DNA of 64,000 nt from Candidatus Gastranaerophilaceae bacterium. GTDB taxonomy: Bacteria; Cyanobacteriota; Vampirovibrionia; Gastranaerophilales; Gastranaerophilaceae. The DNA is taken from the NCBI GenBank assembly GCA_041678605.1, contig JBAYNW010000001.1, forward strand, positions 13,947 to 77,946, written 5' to 3'. Within the stretch, counting starts at the first letter, position 1, and every line of letters begins with the position of its first letter. Shown piece by piece: positions 1,795 through 64,000 of this stretch. A program made the position numbers and the translations under genes. Below the pieces are notes generated by a model, which saw nothing but the letters and a program-made list of their open reading frames with translations, ran no database searches and was not told the origin of the DNA.

Positions 1795-2157
1795 CTATTT
1801 ATACTTTTTAGATAATATATCGAGCCATCCATTCAGTGCATCAAATGGCGTAAGGCTTGAAGTTTCTTTACCTTTTACAGAGGGCATAAGGTCCTCTAAT
1901 AGTTCAACATGCGACTTAGTCTCCCCTTTTGTTATTTGAACTTCAAGAGGTATATCATTTCCTTCTATCCAGGTATAAATCCAATCACAATTTACACCTT
2001 GAGCTTTTTTAAACAAAAAATCTTTTTGTTCTTTTAAAATAATATTGCTCGTATCATATATTCTCAAAACAGCATTGAAAGTTGGCTGCTTTATATTTTT
2101 ATTTTGACCTTTGTTTAAAGATACGGAATTATACTTAGCTTGTGGAATTGATAACAT
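1795..2157 (-). CDS. hypothetical protein (orphan family with shared upstream motif)
   Basis: 120-aa ORF. N-terminus has ..KQPTFNAVLRIY.., resembling ..QASFGSVNLVQV.. of ORF 39792-40412. Upstream motif pair at 2178-2193 and 2226-2241. Confidence 0.5.
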   Translation of the reverse strand: MLSIPQAKYNSVSLNKGQNKNIKQPTFNAVLRIYDTSNIILKEQKDFLFKKAQGVNCDWIYTWIEGNDIPLEVQITKGETKSHVELLEDLMPSVKGKETSSLTPFDALNGWLDILSKKYK

Positions 2158-2291
2158 ATGTTTCCTTCATTTTCTAATATATTTAATATAAACCTTCTAA
2201 AGAGATTTTGTGCTAGCTCTGAAAATTTATTTACATAAATTCACATTGAAGAATAAGAATATTCTTGATAGAATTAATTTAGCGAGGAAAA

Positions 2292-28028: not shown

Positions 28029-28808
28029 CTAAATAATATGTGAAAATGACAGGAAGTATTCGCTGATTACAGTCACAAGCATCGGCAAAATCCATACCAT
28101 AATTGCCGCACCTAACACCGGTTTAAAGAGGAAGCTCAATTGAAAAACGTTTACCTGCGGTGCGGTTTTGGAGATTATGCCGAGGATTATGTCCTGACCG
28201 AGTGTCGCCAGAAGCACCGGTGCGGCAATTTGCAGACCCATGTACAAAACGTTTGAAGTCATTTGAATTAGATATTCCATATTTACAATTTTTGCTAAGG
28301 GGATACTTGTCGCATAAATCGGAAAGATTTCAAAACTTCTCATAAATGCCTGAAAAAGCCAGTAAACGCCTCCGAGTTGAATAAATATCAAAATGGCAAA
28401 AACAGAAAAATATTTTTCCAAAATGGAAATTTGGCTCTGGGTGGTGGGGTCAAGCACCATTGCGGAAGATAACCCCATTTGCATATTTATCATATCCGCT
28501 CCGGCATCTATGGCAGAGAGTATTAATCTCGCCATATAACCAATCATAGCCCCAACAGCTACGTTCAAAACTATTGATAATATAAGTGAATTATTCACAG
28601 GCGGAACCGGAGGATGAAGAACGCCGGTCAAAGTAATTGTAAGAAGAAAAACGAACCCGATTTTCGCAAGCGACGGAATTTCTTTTCTGCTGAAAACAGG
28701 TGCCAGCAGCACAAATCCCAACATTCTTGCAAACACGATAATGCCCGCACCAAGTGCGGCATCAAAAGCCGGAAAAAGTTTTGCAATTTGTGTTATAAAA
28801 ACATCCAT
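28029..28808 (-). CDS. fliR: flagellar biosynthetic protein FliR
   Basis: 259-aa polytopic protein in fliP-fliQ-fliR order, with a FliR-like hydrophobic profile. Confidence 0.75.
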   Translation of the reverse strand: MDVFITQIAKLFPAFDAALGAGIIVFARMLGFVLLAPVFSRKEIPSLAKIGFVFLLTITLTGVLHPPVPPVNNSLILSIVLNVAVGAMIGYMARLILSAIDAGADMINMQMGLSSAMVLDPTTQSQISILEKYFSVFAILIFIQLGGVYWLFQAFMRSFEIFPIYATSIPLAKIVNMEYLIQMTSNVLYMGLQIAAPVLLATLGQDIILGIISKTAPQVNVFQLSFLFKPVLGAAIMVWILPMLVTVISEYFLSFSHII

Positions 28809-28831
28809 TTGTTATGTAAATCCTTTTAATA

Positions 28832-29282
28832 AGTGATTAAGTGACTAGGTGACTAAGTGATTAAGTGCAATTAAGTTTTTTTATCTAAATATTTTTTTAA
28901 TCCTGATGTTAAAGCACTAATTTTACCTAATTCATTCAGCAATACATCTAAATTATCTAAATATCCTAAATTTTTTGAAATAATCAATTGAGTTTCAAGT
29001 TCGGCAATTGACCCTAACGCAATATCTAGAAATCTTGAAGTTTCTCTAGCCGAGTATCTGGCACAACCCTCTGCAATATTTGAAGGAATAGAGATAACGC
29101 ATCTCCTAATTTGATTTGTTAAACTAAACATTTCATATTTAGGAAATTTATTTGTAATTAAATAAATTTTTGTTACGAAATTAATTGATTCTTTCCAAGC
29201 TTCTAAATCTTTATGATGCATCCTTATTTATATCCTTCTTTTTGTTGCACTTAGTCACTTAATCACCTAGTCACTTAGTTAC
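28832..29282. mobile_element. cassette: four-helix-bundle gene bounded by ~40-bp imperfect terminal inverted repeats of the CACTTAATCAC module
   Basis: Left AAGTGATTAAGTGACTAGGTGACTAAGTGATTAAGTGCAA (28832-28871). Right TTGCACTTAGTCACTTAATCACCTAGTCACTTAGTTACTT (29243-29282). About 36/40 complementary. Confidence 0.4.
28871..29221 (-). CDS. four-helix-bundle protein (23S rRNA intervening-sequence protein / Avd-like family)
   Basis: Motifs DLEAWKES, FPK.E.FSLTNQIRR...SIPSNIAEG and GS..ELETQL. Confidence 0.85.
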   Translation of the reverse strand: MHHKDLEAWKESINFVTKIYLITNKFPKYEMFSLTNQIRRCVISIPSNIAEGCARYSARETSRFLDIALGSIAELETQLIISKNLGYLDNLDVLLNELGKISALTSGLKKYLDKKT

Positions 29283-29287
29283 TTTTA

Positions 29288-29779
29288 TTACCTTCCCATT
29301 ATTTTTTTAGTTTCAACAAGATTAGGTTTTGGCATTTGTGTTTTTGGTGCGGGGGTATATTTCATGCCTTCCTCGGTTTGTTTCGAGAAATCAAACCTTT
29401 GAGAACCTTTCATTAGGTCTTTAAGATTAGCTTTATCCTTGATTTTATCCTTCATTTCCCCCTGAAAAGGACGGGTATACTTATAATATTCAGTCGGCAG
29501 GGCATAACTGTCGCTCTTTGGAACAACATCAAACGCCATCAAAAATCCTTCGTTCATCAAATTCGTGAGCAGTCGTACGTATCCGTAACCGCCTATTATA
29601 ATAACCAAAAATACGGCTAAAATTTTCGGAGCAGCCGCAATCGTTTGCTCCTGAACCTGAGTTACCGCCTGCAAAACCCCGATTACAAGTCCTACCAGTG
29701 CTGCTACCAGTACACAGGGCATGGATATCAGCAGCATAACCACAAAACCTCTTGCCATATATTCTACTAATAGTTCCAT
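29288..29779 (-). CDS. fliQ: flagellar biosynthetic protein FliQ with ~75-aa C-terminal extension
   Basis: The first ~88 aa match the FliQ pattern (LQAVTQVQEQTIAAAPKI). The rest is a Lys-rich tail. Confidence 0.8.
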   Translation of the reverse strand: MELLVEYMARGFVVMLLISMPCVLVAALVGLVIGVLQAVTQVQEQTIAAAPKILAVFLVIIIGGYGYVRLLTNLMNEGFLMAFDVVPKSDSYALPTEYYKYTRPFQGEMKDKIKDKANLKDLMKGSQRFDFSKQTEEGMKYTPAPKTQMPKPNLVETKKIMGR

Positions 29780-29876
29780 GTTTTATTTCCTTCTTTTTCT
29801 GTTTTTGTTTTGGATGAAATCCTGAACAAGTTCAGGAGGACACATTTATAAGGCTCGTTTTTCGCCAAGAGCTGCG

Positions 29877-30518
29877 TCAATTGTAGCTGCTAACAAGTCC
29901 TTGTACTATCAACGCCCAACCATCGACCGCAATAAAGATTAGGAGTTTGAACGGCAGTGAAATAATCGTCGGTGATAACATAAACATCCCCAACGCAAGC
30001 AGGATGTTTGCAACCACCAAATCCAGCACGATAAACGGAACGAAAATTATAAAACCGATTTCAAAAGAAGTTTTTAATTCGCTCGTGATAAATGCCGGTG
30101 CAACCTGCCAAATGGTTATTTCTTCCGGTGATTTTGGCGGATTTTTTTGCGAAAGCGACACGAAGAACTCCAAATCCTGCTGCCGCGTCTGTTTCATCAT
30201 GAATTCTTTTAAAGGTTTTGAACCCTCTTCAATTGCAAGCACAATATTCCCCGTTTTGTTGTACGGAACTTGCCCCATGTCATACATTTTTTGAAAGACA
30301 GGACCCATTGTGTAGAAAGTTAAAATCATCGACAAACCTATAATTACTATTGCCGGCGGAACCTGCTGCGTGCCGAGTGCGGTTTTTAGCATTGAAAACA
30401 CTATGACAAATCTCAAAAAGCTTGTCATGCAGCTAAAAACGAATGGCAAAAGTGAAAATACACTCATTACCACCAACATTTGTATGACCGGATTCATATC
30501 CTTTAAAACAGATTCCAT
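29877..30518 (-). CDS. fliP: flagellar biosynthetic protein FliP
   Basis: MTSFLRFVIVFSMLKTALGTQQVPP and GLSMILTFYTMGPV motifs. Confidence 0.85.
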   Translation of the reverse strand: MESVLKDMNPVIQMLVVMSVFSLLPFVFSCMTSFLRFVIVFSMLKTALGTQQVPPAIVIIGLSMILTFYTMGPVFQKMYDMGQVPYNKTGNIVLAIEEGSKPLKEFMMKQTRQQDLEFFVSLSQKNPPKSPEEITIWQVAPAFITSELKTSFEIGFIIFVPFIVLDLVVANILLALGMFMLSPTIISLPFKLLIFIAVDGWALIVQGLVSSYN

Positions 30519-30531
30519 ATTTATTCCTCTT

Positions 30532-30948
30532 TTATATTACACTTAGCTTCTTTGCCAACTCTCTCATCATCGGTCCCTTTTTTGAACGTTCTTTTTCAAA
30601 ATCTATTATCGAGGCAAATTCCCCCAGACTTTCTATCCCGTCAAAACTACTCAGTTCTGAACTTTTATCTTCTCTAAGAGGCTTCGATTCTTTTTCGAAA
30701 TCCTTGCCCAGCCTTGCAATTAAAGCAGTTCTGTCAATATCGGCGGCGATTAAAAATCTTTCATTCTCCGCATTTATCACATAGAGTGTCTTTCTAGGAG
30801 ACAGGCTCATTGACTCCTCTATATTTAACATCCCTGATTTTTTGGAAAAACATTTGTTAGAAAATGTTTTGAACACAAAAAGTGCAAGAAAAATTACACC
30901 TATCATTGCAAGTGTGTATACTAAAAAACTAACTAAGTATCCTGTCAT
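30532..30948 (-). CDS. FliO/FliZ-like single-pass flagellar export protein
   Basis: One N-terminal TM helix. Assignment rests on position immediately upstream of fliP, so it is positional only. Confidence 0.45.
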   Translation of the reverse strand: MTGYLVSFLVYTLAMIGVIFLALFVFKTFSNKCFSKKSGMLNIEESMSLSPRKTLYVINAENERFLIAADIDRTALIARLGKDFEKESKPLREDKSSELSSFDGIESLGEFASIIDFEKERSKKGPMMRELAKKLSVI

Positions 30949-30984
30949 TTTGCCTCCCCGTTATTTTTACTGTTTACCGTTTCC

Positions 30985-32157
30985 TCAAATGTCCTGATCA
31001 TCAAGCTCGAAATCGCTGTAATCGAACTCTTCATCCGCTTTGCTGTTGCTTTCGCTCTCTTGAGGTTCTTGCTGTTGTGCTTCGGTTTCTTCTCCGGAAT
31101 TTTCGGTCTGCACCTGAGTTATTTGTTCCGCCTGATTTTTTTCAGAGGCAAAAACCTCATCCACCCTCACTCCGTAGCGGTCGTTAACAATTACCAGTTC
31201 GCCTTTTGCGATGGTTTTGTTTTCCACTTTTAGAAAAATTTTGTTGTTATAAACCGAACTTATATCCACGACAAGACCCTGTTCAATATTTTTCAGTTCT
31301 CCGAGAGTTATTTTTACTTTTTCAAACTCTGCACCCATCTCGACCTGAATATTGTCCCATAAGTCTTTAGATAAAGCATTTTCTTCCATGTTATGTCCTC
31401 CGTTGTTGTTGGCTGATGTTATTAGACCCGGATTGGGGCTGACCTTAAAATCTTGTTCGTAATCTTCATAAATGAGCTTCATTGAGTGAATGTCACTGTT
31501 TTCGAAAACAACTATGTCCTCTTTTTCCAAATTTTTTAATTCTTTTAGCAAGAATTTTGTAGTCCCGACTTTTATGTTCACCGGCAATTTGCTTGTTTTG
31601 AAATCCGAAACATCAAATTTTTCACTCTCCACTTTGACGGCCTCGGGGGATAGTAAAACCTGCGGCAGAGAAACTATTAATTTTGCTCCGTTATCCGATT
31701 CTTTTTCTTTGATAAAGAAGGTTAAATGAATTGTGTCCATGTTCTTTCTTTTTGGGGACTTAGGGACAGACGAAGTCAAAAACTTTGAGATACTGTTATA
31801 CAAATAATCGTTGAATGAGCTTATTATCTTTGCTTCCAGCTCAGTTACATTCGTCAAATTAAATTTTTCATTTTTGCCCAAAATTTTGTCCAGAATAATT
31901 TTGACTGCATTTTCCGAACACCTTAAGAAAACTTCATGCTGCTTATCTACACGGATTTTGGTTACAAAATAATCGTCGCCTTGAAACAAAACATTCATAT
32001 TTTTGCTCACGGATATTAACTTGAAAGAAGAAAGCCCCGAGAAAAAATCGTCGCCTGCCGTTTGTATTGACGGCAAAAAAGTTTGGTAAAACCAGTTGTA
32101 CTGGTCGTACAGCTCATCTTTTAAAATTATTTTTGCTTCAGTTTTAACTTCACTCAA
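30985..32157 (-). CDS. flagellar motor switch protein of the FliM/FliN (SpoA domain) family with acidic C-terminal tail
   Basis: C-terminal SpoA-like segment LGELKNIEQGLVVDI......IFLKVENKTIAKGELVIVNDRYGVRVDEV. TTG start. No LSQEEID CheY-binding motif seen. Confidence 0.6.
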   Translation of the reverse strand: MSEVKTEAKIILKDELYDQYNWFYQTFLPSIQTAGDDFFSGLSSFKLISVSKNMNVLFQGDDYFVTKIRVDKQHEVFLRCSENAVKIILDKILGKNEKFNLTNVTELEAKIISSFNDYLYNSISKFLTSSVPKSPKRKNMDTIHLTFFIKEKESDNGAKLIVSLPQVLLSPEAVKVESEKFDVSDFKTSKLPVNIKVGTTKFLLKELKNLEKEDIVVFENSDIHSMKLIYEDYEQDFKVSPNPGLITSANNNGGHNMEENALSKDLWDNIQVEMGAEFEKVKITLGELKNIEQGLVVDISSVYNNKIFLKVENKTIAKGELVIVNDRYGVRVDEVFASEKNQAEQITQVQTENSGEETEAQQQEPQESESNSKADEEFDYSDFELDDQDI

Positions 32158-32379: not shown

Positions 32380-33141
32380 TCAATAACTCATCTGCCAGCC
32401 TTCGTCGATGATTCTGCCGATACAATAGGAACCGGATTTATTTGTTCCGCCGTTATATCCGTCGTTACAAAGCTTGTTGGATTTCCAGTAGGTAAGTTTA
32501 GCCCCGCCAACGGGATATAATGCAGGGCCATTATCATTGACAATCCTAAAGTAAAATATATCGCGACCAAAAGCATTTGGTTTTTTGAGCCCGTTTACAT
32601 CAATATAAACACTTGCCATACATACTTTTGTCAGAGAATCAGCTGAACCGCTGCAACCTAAATATGGGGTTTTGCCAAGAAAAACCGACATACCATCCGC
32701 TGTTATAAACCTGTAATAAGATGTCCAATCATATCCACTTGAAGTGTTAGTGCCATCAAAATTTAGTGCTATTGTATTTGAAAAACAGCCTGAGGTTGTC
32801 GTATCACAATTCTTTGCCACATTAAAATAAGCAGCTATCTTATCGCCCATAGTTTTTGCATCGGCCGAATCAAAGAAGCAGCTTAAATCACCTATGCATC
32901 CTGAATCTGCGGCCATCTGGATTAATGCCTGATTCCACAAGGAGTAAGCTTTTCTCACGCCTGCGACGTATCCTACTTTTTGGGATTCGGCAATCAGTCC
33001 CGGAATCATAAGCCCTGCGACCACGCCGATAATGCCGATTGTGACTAAAACTTCGGCGAGAGTGAAGGCGAGTGAGCGAAAGAAAACTCCCTGCTGTTGG
33101 GCTTGCCAGCCCAACCTACTTTGTTTTTTATCGGATTTCAT
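32380..33141 (-). CDS. prepilin-type N-terminal cleavage/methylation domain protein (pilin/pseudopilin-like)
   Basis: FTLAEVLVTIGIIGVVAGL class III signal region. C-terminal IDVNG.KKPN..GRDIF motif shared with ORF 57501-58193. Confidence 0.7.
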   Translation of the reverse strand: MKSDKKQSRLGWQAQQQGVFFRSLAFTLAEVLVTIGIIGVVAGLMIPGLIAESQKVGYVAGVRKAYSLWNQALIQMAADSGCIGDLSCFFDSADAKTMGDKIAAYFNVAKNCDTTTSGCFSNTIALNFDGTNTSSGYDWTSYYRFITADGMSVFLGKTPYLGCSGSADSLTKVCMASVYIDVNGLKKPNAFGRDIFYFRIVNDNGPALYPVGGAKLTYWKSNKLCNDGYNGGTNKSGSYCIGRIIDEGWQMSY

Positions 33142-36948: not shown

Positions 36949-37291
36949 TTTCTCCCCTATATTGCTTCATAAATCAATTGTAACACTAAAAAACCGGCAT
37001 CCACAGTCCGGCAAAAGCCATGCTTTCCTCTCGGCATAGTTTGGTTATTTTTGGTTTTTTGTCCGGACATGGTACGAAATTTGCCAAGCCTCAGATTTGT
37101 TAAGTTTTATTAAGATAAGGTACGCATTTTAAAAATGGTGTAAAATACAGTATATGATGGGTTTTTGAGAAGTGAGGGTTTATTTTTTCAAAAAATAATT
37201 ATATAATTTCTTAATAAACTAGCAAAAAAAATTCCGGGCATGTTTTATAACATAATAAATAGGTAAATACAAAAAGAAACGGGTAAAGATT

Positions 37292-37645
37292 ATGAGAGAA
37301 GTTAAAAACAACGTGGAGATTGGGAAAGCCCAAAAATCTGATTTAAGAACCGCCAAGGGGACGAAGGCAGAACCTCAATTTTGCGGTGAATTTGAGGAAG
37401 AATCAAGCATAAAAGATTTTTCCAACCCAAAAGCTGAAGCATTGGGCCGTTCACAAGTCAGCAAAACTGACAACGTAGAAAAAGACGTTGCTTTTGGTAA
37501 GGCTCATCCTGAGACAATAGAGCGTGCAGATAAACTCTTTGCTCTTGCGTTTAAAGGGCTTCGGGCTGCCGGAGATCCGGATGCTTATGAAAAAGCTTGT
37601 GCTATTTCGACCTCTTCTGATGCAAGAGATTTGCTTTCCAAGTAA
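37292..37645 (+). CDS. hypothetical protein
   Basis: 117-aa hydrophilic ORF with no recognisable domain. Confidence 0.4.
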   Translation: MREVKNNVEIGKAQKSDLRTAKGTKAEPQFCGEFEEESSIKDFSNPKAEALGRSQVSKTDNVEKDVAFGKAHPETIERADKLFALAFKGLRAAGDPDAYEKACAISTSSDARDLLSK

Positions 37646-39791: not shown

Positions 39792-40412
39792 TCAGTATTC
39801 AATTTGTTCAAATACTTTTGGCAACTGGGATAAATCATCTATAACAAATTTATGGACCGGTTGCCCTTCAAGGATTGGATTAAGTTGTTCACTAAGAAGT
39901 TGGTTTAATCTTGCAGCAGCCCAAGTTCCTTCCACTTTAGATTTTTCACCGCTTGAAACTTTTTGTAATCCTTCGTTAATAACTTTTTTCGTTAATGCAA
40001 ATATATTTTTTGCGAACAATAAATGACTTGCTCCATCTTTTTGTTCTTTTGTAAGAACTGTGAATGAGTGGTGGCTTTGACTTAATGGTTCTGCAATAGG
40101 AATACCAGTATTTCGACTCAACCAAGAAGTAGAATAACCTCCAATTTTTTTTAATTCTTCTGCAATATTGGCATATCCAGGTTGCTCAAGATATACAACA
40201 GTCTTATTAAATTTTTTACCTAAGCCGCATAAACTTAATACTGTTCCTAATTTACTATTAACTTCATTGGTTACTTTAATGGTTGCATTATTAAATTGTT
40301 TACTTACAGCAACTAAATCTTCAGGATTTTTAAAAGCTTTTCTTGACACTTGAACTAAATTCACACTTCCAAAACTTGCTTGATTGTTATTTTGCACTGG
40401 GGTAACATTCAT
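39792..40412 (-). CDS. hypothetical protein (orphan family with shared upstream motif)
   Basis: 206-aa ORF with RBS AAAGGAG. N-terminus MNVTPVQNNNQASFGSVNLVQV. Confidence 0.55.
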   Translation of the reverse strand: MNVTPVQNNNQASFGSVNLVQVSRKAFKNPEDLVAVSKQFNNATIKVTNEVNSKLGTVLSLCGLGKKFNKTVVYLEQPGYANIAEELKKIGGYSTSWLSRNTGIPIAEPLSQSHHSFTVLTKEQKDGASHLLFAKNIFALTKKVINEGLQKVSSGEKSKVEGTWAAARLNQLLSEQLNPILEGQPVHKFVIDDLSQLPKVFEQIEY

Positions 40413-40682
40413 TTTAATTTCTCCTTTACGTTATATGTTACTTACTAAAATTACATTGATGTTTATATAAAGTCCGTAAAGGAAAAATTTTACCCTTTTG
40501 GAAAAATTATTTACAAAAATTAATACTCAACATTTTTACGCTTAAAATTTTACTCCGATTTTCAGAGAGTTAGGCAACTTAGATATACAAATACCACAAG
40601 TAACAACTCAGGTAAAAATGCAAACAAGTCTTGCATCATTGTGAGGAGGTAAATGTTCTGACCTATGCTAAAGAGCGTTCGA

Positions 40683-40818
40683 GTCATTGCGAGGGGTGGG
40701 TTTCCGGCTATGCATAGATTGTCCACCGAAGCAATCTATCTTATGTTTGTACATTGGCAAGATTGCTTCGAAATGCAAACCTCTTTGTGTGTCTACAAGT
40801 TTCATGCCTCGCAATGAC
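40683..40818. repeat. palindromic miniature element GTCATTGCGAGG ... GCCTCGCAATGAC
   Basis: Terminal 12-13-bp inverted repeats. Internal CCACCGAAGCAATC / GATTGCTTCG pair. Related copies at 5915-6049, 56017-56110 and 57003-57096; half copies at 1360-1398, 38975-39025 and 46637-46685. Confidence 0.8.
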
Positions 40819-43708: not shown

Positions 43709-44872
43709 TCATTTATACACTTCAACGTATTTTGGATTAACGGCCAGCCATTTGAAAGATTGCGGCGATGTGTCGGGGATATCAATAACGAAAGTTCCGC
43801 CGTATCGGCCTCTTACAAATCTCAAATAACCTTCATTTGCAAGATTGTTCAAAGCCTTTCGGATAGTATTCGGGCTTAAGTCGAGTTCTTTTGACAATTC
43901 CATGATGGAAGGCAATTTTGAACCGATTTCATAATTCTGTGCAATCAAGGCCTTAATATGATTTTGGGTTTTTTCGTAGTTGTAAAATGCTGTTTCCTGA
44001 GCCGAGGCAAAAATTGATGTTTCTTTTTTAGGGGAAAGAATATTTTCACCGGGCATCTTTATAACAGTTGTGCCGTACCGGCCCCTGCGTGCGAGTAAAA
44101 TTCCCTTTTTAATTAAAGATTTAAGTGCATCATGAATTGTTTTTATGCTTACTTTTAATTCGGCGGACAACCGCTCGTGAGCAGGTAATTTGTCACCTAC
44201 GTTCAATTTTTTTGTAATATATTTTTCCAAGTCTTTTTCAACTTTTTCAACCAGAGTAACGTTATCTGAAATATCCAATTTTGTCCTCGGCATTGAAAAA
44301 TTATCCGACGCAAGAATCCATCTGGCTTCGTTTGACATCTTAAATTTGTGTTCAAGAATTCTCATGGAGCACAAAGCCTCCAAAGCAAGCCTTGTGGTGT
44401 TTGGAGAAATCCCTATTGAAGTTGCCAAAACCCTTGAAGAAGGGAGTTTTTGGCCTATCTTTATTTTTTTGTCAATAATATATTTTTTGATTAAATCAAC
44501 GCAAATATCTCTTTTGGAAGTCAATTTTCTGAGGGTGGAAGTGGATTTTTTCCAATTTCTTACCATGGTGCCGATACACTGCTTTGATTCTACATGCCCC
44601 TTGTCCTCAACATATCTGAATGCGTTTTGCATTGTTCCGATACTCACACCCAAATGATATGCCAAATCTGCCTTTTGAGGCAGCAGGTCGGTTTCTTTTA
44701 TTTTCCCCGCCTTAAAATCGGCTTCAATCCAATCAATCAGCCAATTTGCGACCACCATGGCCTTTGATTCAAAAATATTTTTTAAATCAGGAAACGGGAC
44801 AGAAACATCTTTAACACTGAGTTTTCTGAGATTATTTTTATCCAATAACAAGAATTCATCTGTTTTTTTCAC
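43709..44872 (-). CDS. protein with four tandem GntR-type winged-helix HTH domains
   Basis: Four repeats of the pattern (G/D)xKLPSxxxL(A/S)xxLxVSxxTxxxALxxLxxxGxL: LPQKADLAYHLGVSIGTMQNAF, LPSSRVLATSIGISPNTTRLAL, LPAHERLSAELKVSIKTIHDAL, LPSIMELSKELDLSPNTIRKAL. Confidence 0.7.
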   Translation of the reverse strand: MKKTDEFLLLDKNNLRKLSVKDVSVPFPDLKNIFESKAMVVANWLIDWIEADFKAGKIKETDLLPQKADLAYHLGVSIGTMQNAFRYVEDKGHVESKQCIGTMVRNWKKSTSTLRKLTSKRDICVDLIKKYIIDKKIKIGQKLPSSRVLATSIGISPNTTRLALEALCSMRILEHKFKMSNEARWILASDNFSMPRTKLDISDNVTLVEKVEKDLEKYITKKLNVGDKLPAHERLSAELKVSIKTIHDALKSLIKKGILLARRGRYGTTVIKMPGENILSPKKETSIFASAQETAFYNYEKTQNHIKALIAQNYEIGSKLPSIMELSKELDLSPNTIRKALNNLANEGYLRFVRGRYGGTFVIDIPDTSPQSFKWLAVNPKYVEVYK

Positions 44873-44991
44873 GATTAGCCTCCACGCTTCAAACTAATTA
44901 TACAGTTAATATAAAAAAACAAGCAACTTTTTTTTGCTAGCAAACGCCAAAACCTTTACAAATCTTAAGGTTGGCAGAACATAGAATAAGT

Positions 44992-45690: not shown

Positions 45691-46359
45691 TTATTCCTTT
45701 TTGGTTTCTTTTTCAGGTTTTTCCTTGACCTCAAATTCCTTTTGCATCGGATTGCCTGACATTTTCAATAAAATATTTGAAGCTTTCAGTGAATCTTCAC
45801 CGTAGCCCGTTTTTTGTTTTTGGATATCTTTAAGAAGTTTTACAGAAGTGTCATTGCCTGTTGCCAATCTGGATTCCAGAGCCGCCATAGCTATAAATTT
45901 AACAGGTTGAGAAGGGTCTTGAAGCATTTTATTGACCAAAGCATTCAATGCAGGGTCATTTTTTCTGCTGTCATCTTCCTGAAGTCTTGCCAAAACCTCT
46001 TTTGCACCCATTAGCCGTACATCTTTGTTCTGGTTATTCAAATAACCTTCCAGTGTTTTTACGTAATCATCCGTGAGCTGAACCACTTCACGCTTTTCTG
46101 TTTTTTTCTTCTCTGGTACTTGTGCCGGTGCGGATTGAACCGGAGCCGGAGTTGTAGGCTGAGCAAGGTTTTGCGTATAGTAACTTGCAGGATAGCTCGG
46201 ATTTGTAGAGTAATTCGCCGCATTAACCGTTGATGCGGGAACACTTGCACCGGGTGCCGCAACTGAAGGATTAAATATCTGAATATTTACTCCCGAATAA
46301 TTCGGTACCTGAACGTTTTGAGCTTGTCCAACCATATCTGCCATAAACTTACCTTTCAC
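45691..46359 (-). CDS. hypothetical protein: Pro/Ala-rich N-terminal half and HEAT-like C-terminal half
   Basis: ORF stop lies 3 nt upstream of the start of ORF 45226-45687. VRLMGAKEVLARL...VKFIAMAALESRL helical repeats. Start at 46359 (GTG) or 46344 (ATG). Confidence 0.5.
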   Translation of the reverse strand: MKGKFMADMVGQAQNVQVPNYSGVNIQIFNPSVAAPGASVPASTVNAANYSTNPSYPASYYTQNLAQPTTPAPVQSAPAQVPEKKKTEKREVVQLTDDYVKTLEGYLNNQNKDVRLMGAKEVLARLQEDDSRKNDPALNALVNKMLQDPSQPVKFIAMAALESRLATGNDTSVKLLKDIQKQKTGYGEDSLKASNILLKMSGNPMQKEFEVKEKPEKETKKE

Positions 46360-50153: not shown

Positions 50154-51575
50154 CTAAAAAGCGGAACAGACAATTTGTTTGTCCATTCCGTTTTTTTGAT
50201 TAAATTGAGTTGTTATTTTTTTCTCTGTTTTTTTGGCTTCGGCAGCTTCTTTTTCCAAGTTTGCCTCAGCTTTTTCAATTATTTTGGCTAATTGGTTTTG
50301 AGTTTCGTCATCTGCTTGGCCTGCAACATCAAGCAGTTTATCCAACAGTTTGGTATCGCCGCTTTTGCGTGTAAGAGTATACAGGTCATTGCTATTTTTT
50401 AAAAGGAACTCGCCTATTGGTATCTGTTCCAAAGTCCCAACTACACGAAGGGCTTTAACGGCAACTTCCGGCTGACTGTTTTCCATAGCACTCTTGAATA
50501 TTTTCAAGCCATGTTTTGAGCAGAACTCACCTCTTGGCTCCTGCTTAAGTTTGGTTGCCGCAAAACTAAGAAAATCCTTTACCGTGTCTGTCTTTCCTTG
50601 TTTCAATAAATTACCGGCAACCTCAGCTCCTTTGTCAAGATAAATTTTTGCCGTGTCATCACCAAAGGATAAGAGCTTGCCCATAATCATTCTTGAAAGT
50701 GAGTGTGCTGAATAAAGAGCATCAAGTCCATCTCTGAGGAATATTTCCTTTTGTACCTCAGGTTTCAAAGTTTCTATTTGCCTCCAAGTCTCTGATTGAG
50801 AATCTCTGGCAATCGATTTTTCAAATTCCCAAGGTTTATCGTTAACGTTACCCGCTTCAATAAATGGCTTTAATCCGAATTTTTTGTAAAAACCTTCTTT
50901 ATGCTCGCCTGCTTCTTCAATCATTTTAGAAAACATCATAATTCGTTTATAATTATAATAAAAGTTTTTCGAATTTGAATTTTTAAATAAAGAGGAAAGT
51001 AAACTATAATTGTTTACAATAGCTTCTCCTTTTGCTTTAGGACTAATAAGTTTAGCCATGTCAAGGTACTGATATATTAGTTCACTTGTATCTCTTTTAT
51101 TAAAATCTAAATTTTTCCAAACATTGCCATGTTCTCTTGCAAAGAAAGCTTCTTTAATTTCCTCATTTTTAATTTTATAAGACACGTCGAACAAAAAATT
51201 ATGTGTACTAAATTTCTTGTCTAGAATTTCCCAGTCGTTATATGAAGGGTTCTTTTTTGTAAAAATACCTAAAACATCTGTTTTCTTGTCCAACAAAACT
51301 TTTCTTAATATATCGTCTGGAAGGTTTAAAAGTTTTTCTATATTTTCTAAATCTTTCCAATAGGTTGTACTTTCAGAAATATTTTTAAAAAATTCTTTGG
51401 CTGCATCGGCAATAATTTTGGAATTTTTCGATGCCATTCCGAAAGATACGCAATCTCCGTAATTCGGAAGGGAATTATTTTGTACCTGAGTTTGAGCCTG
51501 AGGGTTTGAGTTCATCTTTGTGCTGTTTGTTTGATTTAAACCGTAATGACGGTTTTGAATAGACTGTACTTGCAT
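50154..51575 (-). CDS. hypothetical protein (orphan family with shared upstream motif)
   Basis: 473-aa mostly helical ORF. Q/N-rich N-terminus ending in LPNYGDCVSFGM. Confidence 0.55.
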   Translation of the reverse strand: MQVQSIQNRHYGLNQTNSTKMNSNPQAQTQVQNNSLPNYGDCVSFGMASKNSKIIADAAKEFFKNISESTTYWKDLENIEKLLNLPDDILRKVLLDKKTDVLGIFTKKNPSYNDWEILDKKFSTHNFLFDVSYKIKNEEIKEAFFAREHGNVWKNLDFNKRDTSELIYQYLDMAKLISPKAKGEAIVNNYSLLSSLFKNSNSKNFYYNYKRIMMFSKMIEEAGEHKEGFYKKFGLKPFIEAGNVNDKPWEFEKSIARDSQSETWRQIETLKPEVQKEIFLRDGLDALYSAHSLSRMIMGKLLSFGDDTAKIYLDKGAEVAGNLLKQGKTDTVKDFLSFAATKLKQEPRGEFCSKHGLKIFKSAMENSQPEVAVKALRVVGTLEQIPIGEFLLKNSNDLYTLTRKSGDTKLLDKLLDVAGQADDETQNQLAKIIEKAEANLEKEAAEAKKTEKKITTQFNQKNGMDKQIVCSAF

Positions 51576-51714
51576 TGTTTTATCCTTTCTTCTCTAAAAT
51601 AAAATATAGACCCCTTTGATAACTCTATTAATGTTTATACAAAACCCGTAAAAATATTTTTTGCGGGTAAAGTCAAAATATTTACAAAAATTAACAATTA
51701 GTTTAAAAAATAAC

Positions 51715-51985
51715 AGCTCAGCAGAAATCAAGTGAGGCTGAAACTCTTTAGTAATAGGTGTTCGTGCCTCCTCCTTCCTTGCGGAGGAGGATAGAATTTC
51801 AACGCGAGGTACGAGCGTATGAAATTCTTGGTGGAGGGTGAAAAGCGGATTGTGATTACGTTTTCCCTCACCCGCTTTTCTAACGTTCGCGGCTCCACCG
51901 CTCACATTGAAAAGACGGCCTCCCCGCAAGGAGGATGCAATTGGCACGTTAAATCACGACTTACGACCATGTTAAATTCTGCTGA
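51715..51985. ncRNA. candidate structured RNA (or complex palindromic element), class unknown
   Basis: Six nested/adjacent helices readable by eye (details in findings). GC-rich against AT-rich flanks. Lies in a 515-nt gap with no credible CDS. Confidence 0.3.
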
Positions 51986-61286: not shown

Positions 61287-62687
61287 GTGAGAGGTGAGAG
61301 GAAATTATTAATATTTATCGCCCTTATTACCTTGCTTTTAACTGGTTGCATTAAAAAAGATTCCCGAACGGTCATTCAATTCGCAACATGGGGTTCGCAA
61401 TCGGAAGTTGCAATTTTGAAACCGATTTTGGCCGAATTTGAAAGGGAAAATCCTGATGTAAAAGTTGATTTAATACATATTCCGCAGAATTATTTCCAAA
61501 AAATTCACCTGCTTTTTGCGTCAAATTTGGCTCCTGACGTGATTTTTATAAACAACTTATATCTGCCAGTTTATGCCAATGCCGGCGTGTTGCAGGAGTT
61601 GAAAAGCCGAACAGTTGAAAAGCCGATAAGTTTGACTGTTTCAAAGAAAAACCATTCAACCTTTCGACCATTCAACCATTCAATTTTTTATAATAAGGCA
61701 TTGGATGCACTATCTTATGACGGAAAGCTTTACGCCATTCCCCGAGATGTTTCAAACCTTGTAATTTACTACAACAAAGACCTTTTTGACAAATACAAAG
61801 TGCCATACCCTAAAGCAAATTGGACGTTTAAGGATTTTTTAGCTGTGGCTCAAAGGCTTACCAAAGACACAAATAACGACGGCAAAAGGGATATTTGGGG
61901 TGTAAGTTTTGAGGAAGATCCGCCGTTGTTTTATTTGCCTTATTTAATGTCAGAAGGCGGCGGGGTTTTGTCGGACGATTTGAAAACTTTGATAATAGAT
62001 ACACCGCAGAGCCAAAAAGGGCTTAGGTTTTATGCCGATTTAAGAAATAAGTACCACGTGGCACCGACAAAGGCCGAGAGTGCGAGTGCGACCATGGCTC
62101 AATTGTTTTTGCAAGGAAAGCTTGCGATGCAGGTTTCGGGGCGTTGGCTTGTGCCAAAATACAGGGAAGATGCGAAATTTAATTGGGATGTGATTAATTT
62201 CCCAAGAGGGGATAAGGGCAGTGTTGTTCCGCTTGACGCTTCAGGCTGGGCAATTTCAAAAAGTTCTAAGCATAAGGAAGAGGCGGCAAAGCTGGTTGAA
62301 TTTTTGGCGTCAAAAAAAAGTATTGAGAAATTTACCCGAAGCGGGCTGATTGTACCTGCGAGAGTTGATGTTGCGGAGGGCGAATTTTTAGATAGAGATA
62401 GTGCAATTAAAAATTGTTCCTCTTATTTGACCCCCCACCCTTACCTTACCTCTCAACCCAAAGATACTCAATCTTTGGATTTCGGCAGAGTCCCTCAAGG
62501 GGGGAGGAAGAACCCATATAATGTAAGATTTTGCAGACCAAAAAGCGAAAGAGTTTTCATTGACGTAATCAAAACCTCAAAACCCACTCCGGTTTCGGTT
62601 GATTACAGTGAAATTCAGGACGAACTGCAAGAAAAAACGAATTATTTGTTTAATTTAAACACTAATGCTTGTCATGTTTTGAATTAA
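61287..62687 (+). CDS. ABC transporter extracellular solute-binding protein (family 1, sugar type) lipoprotein with in-frame repeat insertions
   Basis: Lipobox LLLTGC. Motifs IQFATWGS and LAPDVIFINN, plus a family-1 SBP pattern throughout. Confidence 0.75.
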   Translation: MRGERKLLIFIALITLLLTGCIKKDSRTVIQFATWGSQSEVAILKPILAEFERENPDVKVDLIHIPQNYFQKIHLLFASNLAPDVIFINNLYLPVYANAGVLQELKSRTVEKPISLTVSKKNHSTFRPFNHSIFYNKALDALSYDGKLYAIPRDVSNLVIYYNKDLFDKYKVPYPKANWTFKDFLAVAQRLTKDTNNDGKRDIWGVSFEEDPPLFYLPYLMSEGGGVLSDDLKTLIIDTPQSQKGLRFYADLRNKYHVAPTKAESASATMAQLFLQGKLAMQVSGRWLVPKYREDAKFNWDVINFPRGDKGSVVPLDASGWAISKSSKHKEEAAKLVEFLASKKSIEKFTRSGLIVPARVDVAEGEFLDRDSAIKNCSSYLTPHPYLTSQPKDTQSLDFGRVPQGGRKNPYNVRFCRPKSERVFIDVIKTSKPTPVSVDYSEIQDELQEKTNYLFNLNTNACHVLN

Positions 62688-63945
62688 ATTTGTCCAAAAG
62701 AGGTTGGAAATTGAGCCTTTTCGGAGATTTTAATTTTGAGGTGTCTAAGATTATTGCACCCTTTGAAGCATTTTTCAAAGTTTCTTTGATTACATCAGGG
62801 TACCATTCATATCCAGGTAACTCTTTATTATTAATCTTATTTATAACTACATCTATGTATTTCTGAGCGTTTTTAGGCATATCCGGATGTGCCGATTCTA
62901 TCCACTTATGCATGGGTATACTCATTCTTGGGTTGTTATCTCCAGCACACTCTGTAATGCAGTTGCCCGGTTCATCTTCACCAGCCAACCCTTCAATCGG
63001 CTTTAGAGGAAATACATGTTCATTTGTTGAAACAGATGTGGAAATCAATCTCTGTGAAATTTCCTGTGGAGTTCTATAAATTTTGCCATTAGAGTTTTTC
63101 CTGTAGGTTTTGCCTGAATATTTTACTACAAAAGCACTTAGATTATTTTGAGAAGTCGGGATAGATGATGCTATTTCGAGAATTTTATCAATTTTATCAA
63201 TTTTGGGAAAAGGGTTTGTAACTGCATATAGGATTGCAAGAAATTTTTTTCTTTTAAAAGGATCTTCATCATTTTCTTCAATTATCAAAGCCTTATTTTC
63301 ATCTACTAAATTCTTAATCTTGTTTCTGATTTGATAAGGTAAATCATCCGCCATCGAATGGACTTCATCTAATATTTTAAATTGCTTCGTTTTCAAAATT
63401 TCCATATGTTCCGGCCGCATTAAGAGCAACAATTCTTGCAGTGATTTTTGCGGAGATTTTAAACTTAAATCTTTAAGCTGTTTAAAAATTTCATGCTCTA
63501 TATCATGCATGTTGGATTCAAATGGATTTAAAATATCTATCAATTTTTTATTATATTCTTTATTCGGTAACGTTCTATAACAACCATAAAAGTTCTTAAA
63601 TATTTCAGGAGGGTCGTTGATTTTTTCTAACAAATTATCAAACGTAGAATTTTGCTCCTTAACATTGAAGTTTTCAATATTTTTCAAGACATTCTTTTCG
63701 TGCTGATTCATTTTTTTTCTTATTTTTTTTAAACTATCAATGACAAAATCGGCCGAAAGCGGTTCTTCCTTTAAAGGCCAAATTATTGAATAGAACTTAC
63801 TTTTCGAAATCATAATTTTTCCACAACAAGGGCATGGAATATTCTCCATTTTTTCAAATGGTAAGCTTATACCAAACGTTGTTGTAGGCTTACATAATAT
63901 GGCATAGTTGGGAATATCCCTTATTGAAAGTTTTCTCAAAGGCAT
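62662..63945 (-). CDS. hypothetical protein with N-terminal CPCCG zinc knuckle
   Basis: 427-aa ORF. The frame stays open upstream towards the window end, so the start is uncertain. Confidence 0.45.
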   Translation of the reverse strand: MPLRKLSIRDIPNYAILCKPTTTFGISLPFEKMENIPCPCCGKIMISKSKFYSIIWPLKEEPLSADFVIDSLKKIRKKMNQHEKNVLKNIENFNVKEQNSTFDNLLEKINDPPEIFKNFYGCYRTLPNKEYNKKLIDILNPFESNMHDIEHEIFKQLKDLSLKSPQKSLQELLLLMRPEHMEILKTKQFKILDEVHSMADDLPYQIRNKIKNLVDENKALIIEENDEDPFKRKKFLAILYAVTNPFPKIDKIDKILEIASSIPTSQNNLSAFVVKYSGKTYRKNSNGKIYRTPQEISQRLISTSVSTNEHVFPLKPIEGLAGEDEPGNCITECAGDNNPRMSIPMHKWIESAHPDMPKNAQKYIDVVINKINNKELPGYEWYPDVIKETLKNASKGAIILDTSKLKSPKRLNFQPLLDKFNSKHDKH

Positions 63946-64000
63946 GGCAGAAGGAGCCGTTTGGCAAGCTTTAGCCTGAGAATTGCACGGCTGATTGTAT

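Follow-up and report, generated by a model that had tools for sequence, protein, structure and literature searches.

Why should bacterial genes with otherwise dissimilar products share both a pair of upstream sequence boxes and a similar N-terminal peptide? The question is raised by a 64,000-nt stretch of Candidatus Gastranaerophilaceae DNA (hereafter the window; C1:13947-77946 of a 1.77-Mb assembly with 58 contigs, 37.6% G+C and 97% completeness, contig coordinates being written in this form throughout), in which three genes on the minus strand, here termed A, B and C (Table 1), have these properties. A search with one conserved protein placed its relatives in Candidatus Gastranaerophilales, Gastranaerophilaceae and Melainabacteria genomes from guts, the rumen and some environmental samples. 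We propose that the three genes very probably belong to a promoter regulon of about 80 genes, and that this regulon is linked to an N-terminal leader, hereafter the tag, which may act in export. All the evidence is drawn from sequence, and the transcription start site is placed by reference to a -10-like element; gene calls come from a crude open reading frame (ORF) caller, some starts being uncertain, and counts of tagged proteins vary with the rule applied. Scans of the window with Rfam and for tRNAs gave no matches.

A preliminary description of the window had reported two boxes upstream of each of these genes, and all of its box strings were located within 1 nt of where it had placed them, reading on the minus strand; those of gene B (TTAATTTTTGTAAATAT and TTTTACGGGTTTTGTATAAACATTAAT) are near-identical to those of gene A. 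Across the genome, the regions upstream of genes encoding N-termini like those of A, B and C contain a conserved element, cTAGCAAAAAATATTTTTAGGAGTTTTAAAaCA, that includes both boxes. The core promoter comprises 36 nt (cTAGCAAAAAATATTTTTAGGAGTTTTAAA), with box 2 as its 3' half, and the whole has three parts: distal repeats resembling the HLR1 motif of cyanobacteria (box 1), a -35-like TAGCAA, and a -10-like G(G)TTT(T)A(A/T)A, which together with a T-rich spacer makes up box 2. The hexamer lying 17 nt from TAGCAA is TTTAAA, TTTATA or TTTGTA, preceded by G or GG. The central -35-like element between the boxes had been overlooked in the earlier two-box description, since the 5' half of the gene A core is degenerate (GGGTAA in place of TAGCAA); homologues of gene A have GGCAAAAA or TAGCAAAT at the core position. 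Likewise, the boxes before gene C, first described as the weaker ones, belong to a strong core, and it is gene A that has the degenerate one (position weight matrix, PWM, scores of 20.6 and 2.9, respectively). A reading of the two boxes as a -35/-10 pair is ruled out, as they lie about 48 nt apart with a separate -35-like element in between.

Scanning the 1.77-Mb genome with a PWM of the 36-nt core at a threshold of at least 11 nats gave 82 sites, against 7 in block-shuffled sequence, and nearly all 82 are followed, 17-90 nt beyond their ends, by a start codon on the same strand. Circularity was avoided by splitting 41 tagged genes at random and retraining the PWM de novo on one half: the consensus was identical every time, and 7-9 of the 21 held-out tagged genes (33-43%) were detected at a background rate of 2.5% (P from 1e-6 to 2e-9). 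Housekeeping, flagellar, sigma-factor, rpaB and pilin genes stay below a score of 8.2, compared with 11-27 for members, which shows that the core is no general promoter of this genome. The simplest alternative, that the boxes are ordinary AT-rich promoter sequence found before most genes, could appeal to the 38% G+C of the genome and to the 140 occurrences of short versions such as TTTGTAAAT; it is refuted by the restriction of the core to about 80 of some 1,690 genes, by the low scores of the non-member classes, by the 7 sites in shuffled sequence and by a reversed control pattern that gives only 0-2 matches per genome.

Comparative evidence points the same way. Homologues of gene A from metagenomes (49-80% identity; obtained by genome searches and homologous-protein searches) occupy four different genomic neighbourhoods, and the alignment of their upstream regions runs from box 1 to the ATG and stops just 5' of box 1; before distant homologues in five other genera the promoter is still recognisable, with PWM scores up to 17.7. 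Of 100 genomes belonging to the same family, 98 contain a strict form of the pattern (AGCAAWWWWWWNTTTTNNNNNKTTT), typically with 3-30 matches each. Ten other families of the class yielded only single matches without following genes, in 24 of 201 genomes, which is the chance level, so that on this pattern search the promoter is essentially absent outside the family. The proposal that these genes form a co-regulated set of lineage-specific proteins is thus strongly supported by sequence statistics, phylogenetic footprinting and family-wide conservation. As far as sequence can establish them, we take the architecture of the promoter, its specificity, its link with the tag and the conservation of both as shown.

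Several further features of these promoters were observed. Near-identical upstream segments of 100-150 nt are common to unrelated genes (at the ends of contigs C5, C29 and C25, these three being contig-end cases, and at C10:34346/C8:7503/C8:58341), and in relatives a gene A homologue once adjoins an integrase; the segments and the varied neighbourhoods of gene A suggest mobile or recombining single-gene cassettes that carry their promoter. Six core matches (PWM 11-23; two on C44, two on C7, and one each on C12 and C6) have no ORF of at least 80 aa within 300 nt downstream and may drive small RNAs or very small proteins. Three lipoprotein genes lie under the core promoter.

What would read such a promoter? 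RpaB is the master regulator of photosynthesis genes in cyanobacteria, and an RpaB equivalog is encoded at C7:33217-33972 (NCBIfam NF045944, 363.3 bits against a cut-off of 330). The box 1 motif TGTAA[AC] occurs within 60 nt upstream of the core in 38 of 80 promoters, compared with 140 of 1677 control regions, and read on the other strand box 1 is (G/T)TTACA(T/A)(T/A)-N2-(G/T)TTACA(T/A)(T/A), a direct repeat like HLR1, the motif bound by cyanobacterial RpaB (PMC6525291). Matches of at least 13 of 16 positions are present in 50 of the 80 promoters but in only 150 of 1603 controls (9%; odds ratio 16, P = 7e-29), and matches of at least 14 of 16 in 26 promoters against 34 controls. Thirty-six of the 50 sites share one orientation, and the sites are phase-locked at about 32, 22 or 42 nt upstream of the core, one helical turn apart; this phasing accounts for the fixed spacing of 48-50 nt between the boxes reported in the preliminary description. 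Assuming a start about 7 nt past the -10-like hexamer, the HLR1 centres fall at about -59.5, -49.5 and -70, and activating HLR1 sites in Synechocystis are centred between -66 and -45 (PMC6525291, Riediger et al. 2019).

Judged from motif, position and orthology, the RpaB orthologue probably binds these repeats and activates some 80 transcription units. The regulatory half would accordingly work like RpaB/HLR1 activation in cyanobacteria, two of its three testable features, the HLR1 repeats and an encoded RpaB orthologue, being found here: as there, two imperfect 8-nt direct repeats separated by a 2-nt gap stand upstream of the -35 region in a fixed helical phase, with predicted centres in or near the activating window. 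It differs from cyanobacterial RpaB/HLR1 promoters (for example those of photosystem I genes) in that the host is non-photosynthetic, about 80 lineage-specific proteins, most of them tagged, take the place of photosynthesis genes as targets, the site usually has the reverse orientation, RpaB binding is predicted, and the 36-nt core is near-invariant, unlike sigma-70 promoters and confined to one family. Given the non-photosynthetic host, the different regulon and the unusual core, we regard it as a new variant of RpaB/HLR1 control. Di Rienzi et al. remarked that RpaA, RpaB and NblS must serve another function in non-photosynthetic Melainabacteria (PMC3787301), and we found no paper on the targets of these proteins in Melainabacteria.

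Three points tell against this assignment. The genome encodes three regulators of the OmpR family, so that the repeats could be the site of another of them; the core resembles neither a sigma-70 nor a sigma-28 promoter; and the sigma factors considered all occur also in families that lack the promoter. The -10-like hexamer lacks the A2 and T6 of sigma-70 -10 boxes, and the boxes do not fit the sigma-28 (FliA) promoter TAAA-N15-GCCGATAA. Encoded in the genome are a SigF-like factor next to pilD, a true FliA/WhiG, a divergent FliA-like factor directly downstream of flhB, and a paralogue of the latter. Box 1 might then be an A/T-rich UP-like element, or a site for another OmpR-type regulator, with specificity coming from an alternative sigma factor that reads TAGCA-N15-GGTTT, either the SigF-like factor or one of the two small FliA-like ones. 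The non-canonical core, the three group-3 sigma factors with their paralogue, and the 30 of 80 promoters that lack a good HLR1 match are in its favour, as is a resemblance to the Synechocystis SigF promoter (TAGGC at -32, GGTAA at -12; PMC2532724), which shares the half-sites (TAGCA and GGTTT here) and an offset of about 20 nt; a SigF-like factor is also encoded here beside the prepilin peptidase gene. The spacer, however, is AG-rich in Synechocystis and A/T-rich here, and a link of the SigF-like factor to the regulon would be conjectural. Pilin genes are classical SigF targets, yet those of this genome lack the core motif. All candidate factors are shared with families that lack the promoter, canonical sigma-28 sites stand elsewhere, before two other genes, and the enrichment and helical phasing of HLR1-like sites are very strong. 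We consider the alternative-sigma explanation doubtful, and it would in part be compatible with activation by RpaB.

Two observations concern the sigma factors themselves. The gene flhB and the following divergent FliA-like factor (223 aa) lie at C24:18497-20275; the factor keeps 66-85% identity within the family and 53-67% in four other families, and its 45%-identical paralogue is at C13:4886-5449. Both extend far outside the promoter-bearing family, so that their distribution is uninformative as to which factor reads the core. Perfect sigma-28 sites (TAAAGATG-N11-GCCGATAT) were found only before C12:26217 and C12:27474, two paralogous genes. These tandem paralogues (C12:26115-28493, outside the window; 323 and 339 aa) begin with MGMSASQCRLLTLTSRLSDLE, each behind a perfect sigma-28 promoter (TAAAGATGTTGATTTATTTGCCGATAT). 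They match no Pfam family and belong to a multi-copy family with 5-20 matches per genome, present in 31 of 37 genomes tested, flagellin-less ones included. Ends of about 110 residues are conserved at both termini of these proteins and the middle is variable, an architecture like that of flagellin; the family could provide a replacement for the filament protein or be a further class-3 substrate of export.

The second half of the system is the tag. A scan of all ORFs recovered dozens of proteins that begin M-x-I/V-x-x-I/V, continue with a nearly acid-free linker rich in Asn, Gln, Ser and Thr, and reach a box of the form [S/A/T]-F-G, more fully [P/V]-[S/A/T/N]-F-[G/K/T/N], with F-K-G, F-T-G, F-N-G and F-K/T-S as frequent variants. 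The motif [STAN]FG falls within residues 1-50 of 27 of 75 regulon proteins (36%) and of 58 of 1615 others (3.6%; P = 4e-18), and its rate in the remainder of the regulon proteins is one tenth of the N-terminal rate; a start of M-x-[I/V] is found in 31 of 75 (41%) against 214 of 1615 (13%; P = 5e-9). The N-terminal similarity first noticed in the window lies well above composition-matched shuffles of the N-termini, in which 2.8 proteins on average and at most 10 (in 1000 shuffles) had the motif, compared with the 27 observed. Linker lengths range from about 5 to 45 residues, the Phe falls at a median position of 24 (range 7-66), and orthologues retain the Phe box while linker length and sequence change; in the gene A family the Phe is invariant (F14 in 9 homologues). 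All-against-all BLAST of 40 tagged proteins found similarity beyond the tag in only 4 of 780 pairs, and no Pfam family covers the tag. In an AlphaFold model of protein A (pLDDT 79, pTM 0.75) the chain is disordered up to residue 14, and the first beta-strand spans residues 17-23; a search of this fold against the PDB returned no match (best E 1.1), and a related-locus search with protein A found no relative. The tag is a leader of modular kind, disordered and poor in acidic residues, that sits in front of unrelated folded domains.

The Phe of the tag is encoded by both TTT and TTC, the Gly by all four of its codons and the preceding residue by 12 codons, from which it follows that selection acts on the peptide. 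This bears on a further alternative, namely that the shared N-terminus is a by-product at the DNA level, either of a mobile cassette comprising the promoter and first codons or of A-rich early codons that aid translation. Some upstream regions are indeed near-identical repeats of about 150 nt (the C5, C29 and C25 contig ends and the C10/C8 pairs), gene A moves as a single-gene cassette, and the leaders are rich in AAT, AAA and CAA codons. We disfavour this view as highly improbable: besides the codon usage, the Phe box is kept while the linker changes severalfold in length, and tags occur on operon-internal genes without a promoter of their own (C2:90277-97143) and in families that lack the promoter altogether.

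A loose rule marks 112 of 1,690 proteins as tagged, an upper bound whose false positives include RibF and FliP; a fair estimate is 60-110 proteins, or 4-6% of the proteome. The carriers include a protein kinase, a DEDD exonuclease, NAMPT, a second PRPP synthetase (the housekeeping copy being untagged), an acyltransferase, NagA, a LOG-family protein, GAPDH, a PvcA-type enzyme, a PIG-L deacetylase, an HATPase protein, two M16 peptidases of about 950 aa and a 5'-nucleotidase. One island of tagged genes, C2:86942-97143, holds an orphan, NAMPT (606 aa), a small orphan and the protein kinase (452 aa), followed by a promoter with a 220-aa protein and the second PRPP synthetase with a 50-residue tag, and has the appearance of a tagged set for NAD salvage; the housekeeping PRPP synthetase, which has no tag, is encoded at C40:11293-12303.

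Does the tag act as a targeting or export signal, as the preliminary description had suggested? Members of the bacterial 5'-nucleotidase/UshA family are normally exported, and homologues from 20 genomes were compared. In two families that lack FlhA, all 9 homologues have a classical Sec signal peptide before the NDxH motif, whereas in four FlhA-bearing families (f1, f2, f9 and f11) all 15 carry polar leaders of 20-90 residues directly before NDxH, with no hydrophobic stretch (for example MVNSISQNMASPVQKRTNASIFYINDVHG, MNFNIPNFNINLPNFKGKQ...). This comparison suggests that the leader occupies the place of the export signal in the 5'-nucleotidase family. Such leaders also occur in families without the promoter, which makes them older and broader than the family-specific promoter. 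Some caution is imposed by three facts: one FlhA-bearing family (f5) has a Sec peptide on its 5'-nucleotidase; the comparison involves distant paralogues and a handful of independent clades; and the tag is carried by several enzymes that are ordinarily cytoplasmic (PRPP synthetase, NAMPT, NagA, GAPDH). DUF6829, tried as a marker of tagged proteins in FlhA-less families, was found only in this genome among 24 tested. On balance we think it likely that the leader is an N-terminal export or sorting signal used in place of a Sec signal peptide: its modular and disordered character and its replacement of the Sec peptide in 5'-nucleotidases lend the earlier suggestion indirect support.

The cytoplasmic type of many carriers (the second PRPP synthetase copy, NAMPT, NagA, GAPDH, the LOG-family protein and the acyltransferase) also lends itself to another explanation, in which the leader is an intracellular label, either a protease or adaptor site for maturation or regulated degradation or a handle for localisation or assembly in an RpaB-controlled state. 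The F-G/S/A ending resembles a processing site, and secretion of the tagged proteins is predicted from sequence. This explanation appears improbable, however, in that the 5'-nucleotidase leader sits exactly where relatives have their Sec peptide, M16 peptidases and lipoproteins belong to the same regulon, and transmembrane segments follow the leader in some carriers.

As an export signal, the leader matches none of those described. A Sec, Tat or lipoprotein signal peptide was considered and rejected, the tag leaders being polar, with no hydrophobic h-region of 8 or more residues; they show no hydrophobic core, twin arginine or prepilin motif, and a hydrophobic run of at least 9 residues within residues 1-35 occurs in 0-4% of regulon proteins, compared with 9% of others. 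Like Sec/Tat, prepilin and double-glycine (PCAT) leaders, the tag is N-terminal and directly precedes the mature domain. Many tags end in FGG, FGS or FGA (others in FKG, FTG or FN), and this F-G-[G/S/A] ending superficially resembles the GG/GA/GS processing site of double-glycine leaders. Unlike these classes, the tag has no hydrophobic core, twin arginine, G↓FTLxE or conserved acidic and hydrophobic leader positions, and the genome has no LSGGQ-containing ABC protein longer than 640 aa except UvrA by a crude motif test in which PF03412 was not searched. The pilin-related machinery, also named in the preliminary description as a possible route, finds no support: the core promoter is absent from all 28 prepilin-like genes, whose products bear a G↓FTLAE signal of their own. 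These type IV pilin-like genes ([G/A]F[T/S]LAE) lie for example at window positions 32380-33141 and on contigs C6, C9, C17, C22, C29 and C50, and many of their leaders are stretched to 40-90 residues by in-frame short-repeat modules (...PRND..KLTF.PF.RSTFQP↓AFTLAEVL).

Among known machines the best candidate for the export route is the flagellar type III gate, a tentative assignment that we hold to be possible while short of probable. The genome encodes fliE-fliF-(fliG-like)-fliH-flhA, fliN/Y-fliO-P-Q-R (in the window) and flhB, a FliI-type Walker A ATPase (found by motif only) and the rod genes flgB, flgC and two flgF/G-like genes, and this 97%-complete genome has no flagellin. Within the family, genera g1-g15 and g17 are without flagellin and genera g16 and g18-g23 have 5-9 flagellin genes. 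FlhA is encoded by all genomes of the family and occurs in most other families, and being near-universal it makes the co-occurrence of promoter and FlhA uninformative. It comes in two grades in the family, canonical (about 865 bits to PF00771) with flagellin and divergent (about 730 bits) without, which suggests that the export gate evolved further after loss of the filament. A reduced flagellar gene set is known from the gut Melainabacteria genome MEL.A1 (PMC3787301).

Early flagellar substrates carry an N-terminal hydrophobic signal and a Phe-containing gate-recognition motif that docks on FlhB-C (PMC8983047, PMC9307174); in Salmonella the FlhB-C pocket is formed by A286, P287, A341 and L344, of which L344 is critical and contacts the substrate Phe (PMC9307174). 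Aligned to solved FlhB, the protein encoded here has S286, P287, A341 and L344, and its autocleavage motif is NPIH rather than NPTH. The tag resembles the signal of early (rod and hook) substrates in being an unchaperoned, disordered N-terminus with small hydrophobic residues at positions 3 and 6 (M-x-I/V-x-x-I/V being typical), its invariant Phe may answer to the one critical Phe within the first 50 or so residues of those substrates, and the two systems share a complete gate with conserved FlhB pocket residues.

Against this route stand several observations. The Phe of the tag is flanked by conserved neighbours (P/V-S/A before, G after), giving [P/V]-[S/A/T]-F-G where early substrates have F-x-x-x-hydrophobic, and F+4 is F, I, L or V in only some 40% of tags. 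Many tags have their Phe at a distance of 7-20 residues from the N-terminus (residue 14 in gene A), and FlgD stalls when its two signals sit that close (PMC8983047). Scored with a position-specific scoring matrix of the tag, FliE, FlgB, FlgC, the FlgF-like and the FlgG-like proteins fall at percentiles 84, 61, 94, 58 and 41 of ordinary proteins. The flagellar genes lack the regulon promoter, and promoter and tag occur in flagellated and filament-less genera alike and are thus unlinked to filament loss. Since the tag lacks two defining features, we do not file it as an early flagellar substrate signal; it also differs in marking some 60-110 non-flagellar proteins, in having no statistical likeness to the rod proteins of the genome, and in that export here is predicted. 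The suggestion of flagellar type III export in the preliminary description is plausible: the complete gate, the conserved Phe pocket of FlhB and the missing flagellin agree with it, but the Phe box does not resemble the genome's own rod proteins.

Putative flagellum-type exporters and exported non-flagellar proteins have precedents in Buchnera basal bodies, Campylobacter Cia/FlaC and Yersinia YplA. As in reduced flagellar exporters, a host-associated lineage with a reduced genome here keeps gate and rod while lacking flagellin, hook-filament junction and cap; those exporters differ in having few substrates and no sequence-defined consensus signal, while here the tag marks several percent of the proteome and is found also in flagellated relatives.

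Many of the same discrepancies would be explained if another machine read the leader, such as an undescribed transporter or a route to the periplasm or outer membrane specific to Vampirovibrionia. The Phe box has no significant likeness to the rod proteins, the distances from tip to Phe are short for flagellar substrates, the flagellar apparatus is not co-regulated with the tagged genes, and the tag is equally present in fully flagellated genera. We nevertheless rate another machine as clearly unlikely: no candidate for it was found, no PCAT-type ABC exporter being evident in the crude test, the flagellar gate is the one known exporter encoded here that works independently of Sec and uses an N-terminal signal, and the polar 5'-nucleotidase leaders track FlhA-bearing families.

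Taken together, a three-part promoter, RpaB, an export leader and a flagellar gate as its most likely reader form what we consider the best joint explanation, one that we hold to be evenly poised between right and wrong. The RpaB orthologue would bind the distal HLR1-like repeats about 60 nt before the presumed start, or one helical turn to either side, and would switch on some 80 transcription units as one programme; most products of the regulon, together with some genes outside it, start with the tag leader, which would replace the Sec signal peptide as export or sorting signal. Its reader would be the flagellar export gate (FlhA/FlhB/FliPQR/FliHI) retained in a flagellin-less lineage, and the invariant Phe of the tag would dock in the C-terminal hydrophobic pocket of FlhB, as the gate-recognition motif of rod and hook proteins does. 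In its strongest form, in which the Phe tag is a general export signal read by the flagellar gate and defines a secretome of 80-100 enzymes and orphans under a redeployed RpaB, the explanation is rather unlikely to hold.

Table 1. Genes, promoter elements and tags in the window (positions are those of the window; PWM, score of the core promoter in nats).
Feature	Position	Strand	Remarks
Gene A, HLR1-like element (box 1)	40510..40527	-	Plus-strand TTTACAAAAATTAATACT; kept in 4 homologues in different contexts
Gene A, box 1 as first quoted	40523-40508	-	TTAATTTTTGTAAATA, then 27 nt, then box 2
Gene A, box 2 as first quoted	40480-40455	-	TTTACGGACTTTATATAAACATCAAT
Gene A, core promoter	40461..40496	-	AGGGTAAAATTTTTCCTTTACGGACTTTATATAAAC; includes box 2; -35-like part degenerate; PWM 2.4-2.9
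Gene A	39792..40412	-	206 aa; lineage-specific; no Pfam family
Gene A, tag	40368-40412	-	Residues 1-15, MNVTPVQNNNQASFG
Gene B, HLR1-like element (box 1)	51681..51698	-	Plus-strand TTTACAAAAATTAACAAT; 15/16 positions
Gene B, core promoter	51632..51667	-	CCCGCAAAAAATATTTTTACGGGTTTTGTATAAACA; includes box 2; PWM 23.0; ends 56 nt before ATG
Gene B	50154..51575	-	473 aa; orphan protein
Gene B, tag	51438-51575	-	Residues 1-46, MQVQSIQN...LPNYGDCVSFG
Gene C, HLR1-like element (box 1)	2230..2247	-	Plus-strand TTTACATAAATTCACATT; 15/16 positions
Gene C, core promoter	2181..2216	-	CTAGCACAAAATCTCTTTAGAAGGTTTATATTAAAT; PWM 20.6; ends 23 nt before ATG
Gene C	1795..2157	-	120 aa; orphan protein
Gene C, tag	2074-2157	-	Residues 1-28, MLSIPQAKYN...IKQPTFN
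ORF D (HEAT-repeat protein)	45691..46359	-	Membership unsupported
Gene E	62662..64000, continuing to 64035 beyond the window	-	457 aa
Gene E, tag	Ends 63871	-	MKVTSIG...IPNYAILCKPTTTFG
Gene E, core promoter	64037-64072, outside the window	-	PWM 15.5; ends 1 nt before ATG
Further core match	37219..37254	+	PWM 12.3; before ORF 37292-37645 (117 aa), N-terminus not tag-like
Further core match	44905..44940	-	PWM 12.1; before ORF 43709-44872, no tag
Export-gate genes	28029..32157	-	fliR 28029-28808, fliQ 29288-29779, fliP 29877-30518, fliO 30532-30948, fliN/Y 30985-32157

The other features noted in the window are listed in Table 1. Two ORFs had been put forward as related to genes A-C. The first, ORF D, has neither a core-promoter match nor a clear tag and is not retained; the second, originally delimited as 62662-63945, does carry both and is listed as gene E, its true start lying beyond the window. 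With GGTTATAAT placed 6-7 nt upstream of the A of its ATG, the mRNA of gene E may be leaderless, translation otherwise beginning at the second Met, 30 codons downstream. Gene B has a paralogue at C30:18995-19852. G+C-rich composite repeat or palindromic elements at 40683-40818 and 51720-51900 lie immediately upstream of the promoter cassettes of genes A and B and may insulate or delimit them.

For the biology of these organisms, the predicted regulon would provide a first concrete and testable answer to what RpaB and NblS do in non-photosynthetic relatives of cyanobacteria; its members are predicted site by site. A widespread gut lineage carries a recognisable leader on 4-6% of its proteome and, in about two thirds of the sampled genera of Gastranaerophilaceae, keeps the export gate without flagellin. 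If the leader is an export signal, it would define a secretome of kinases, nucleases, NAD-salvage enzymes and peptidases possibly acting on the host or on neighbouring microbes, and, if read by the flagellar gate, would be the first consensus-type signal for flagellum-derived secretion. Promoter and tag together offer aids to annotation for the hundreds of Gastranaerophilales genomes that are rich in 'hypothetical proteins'.

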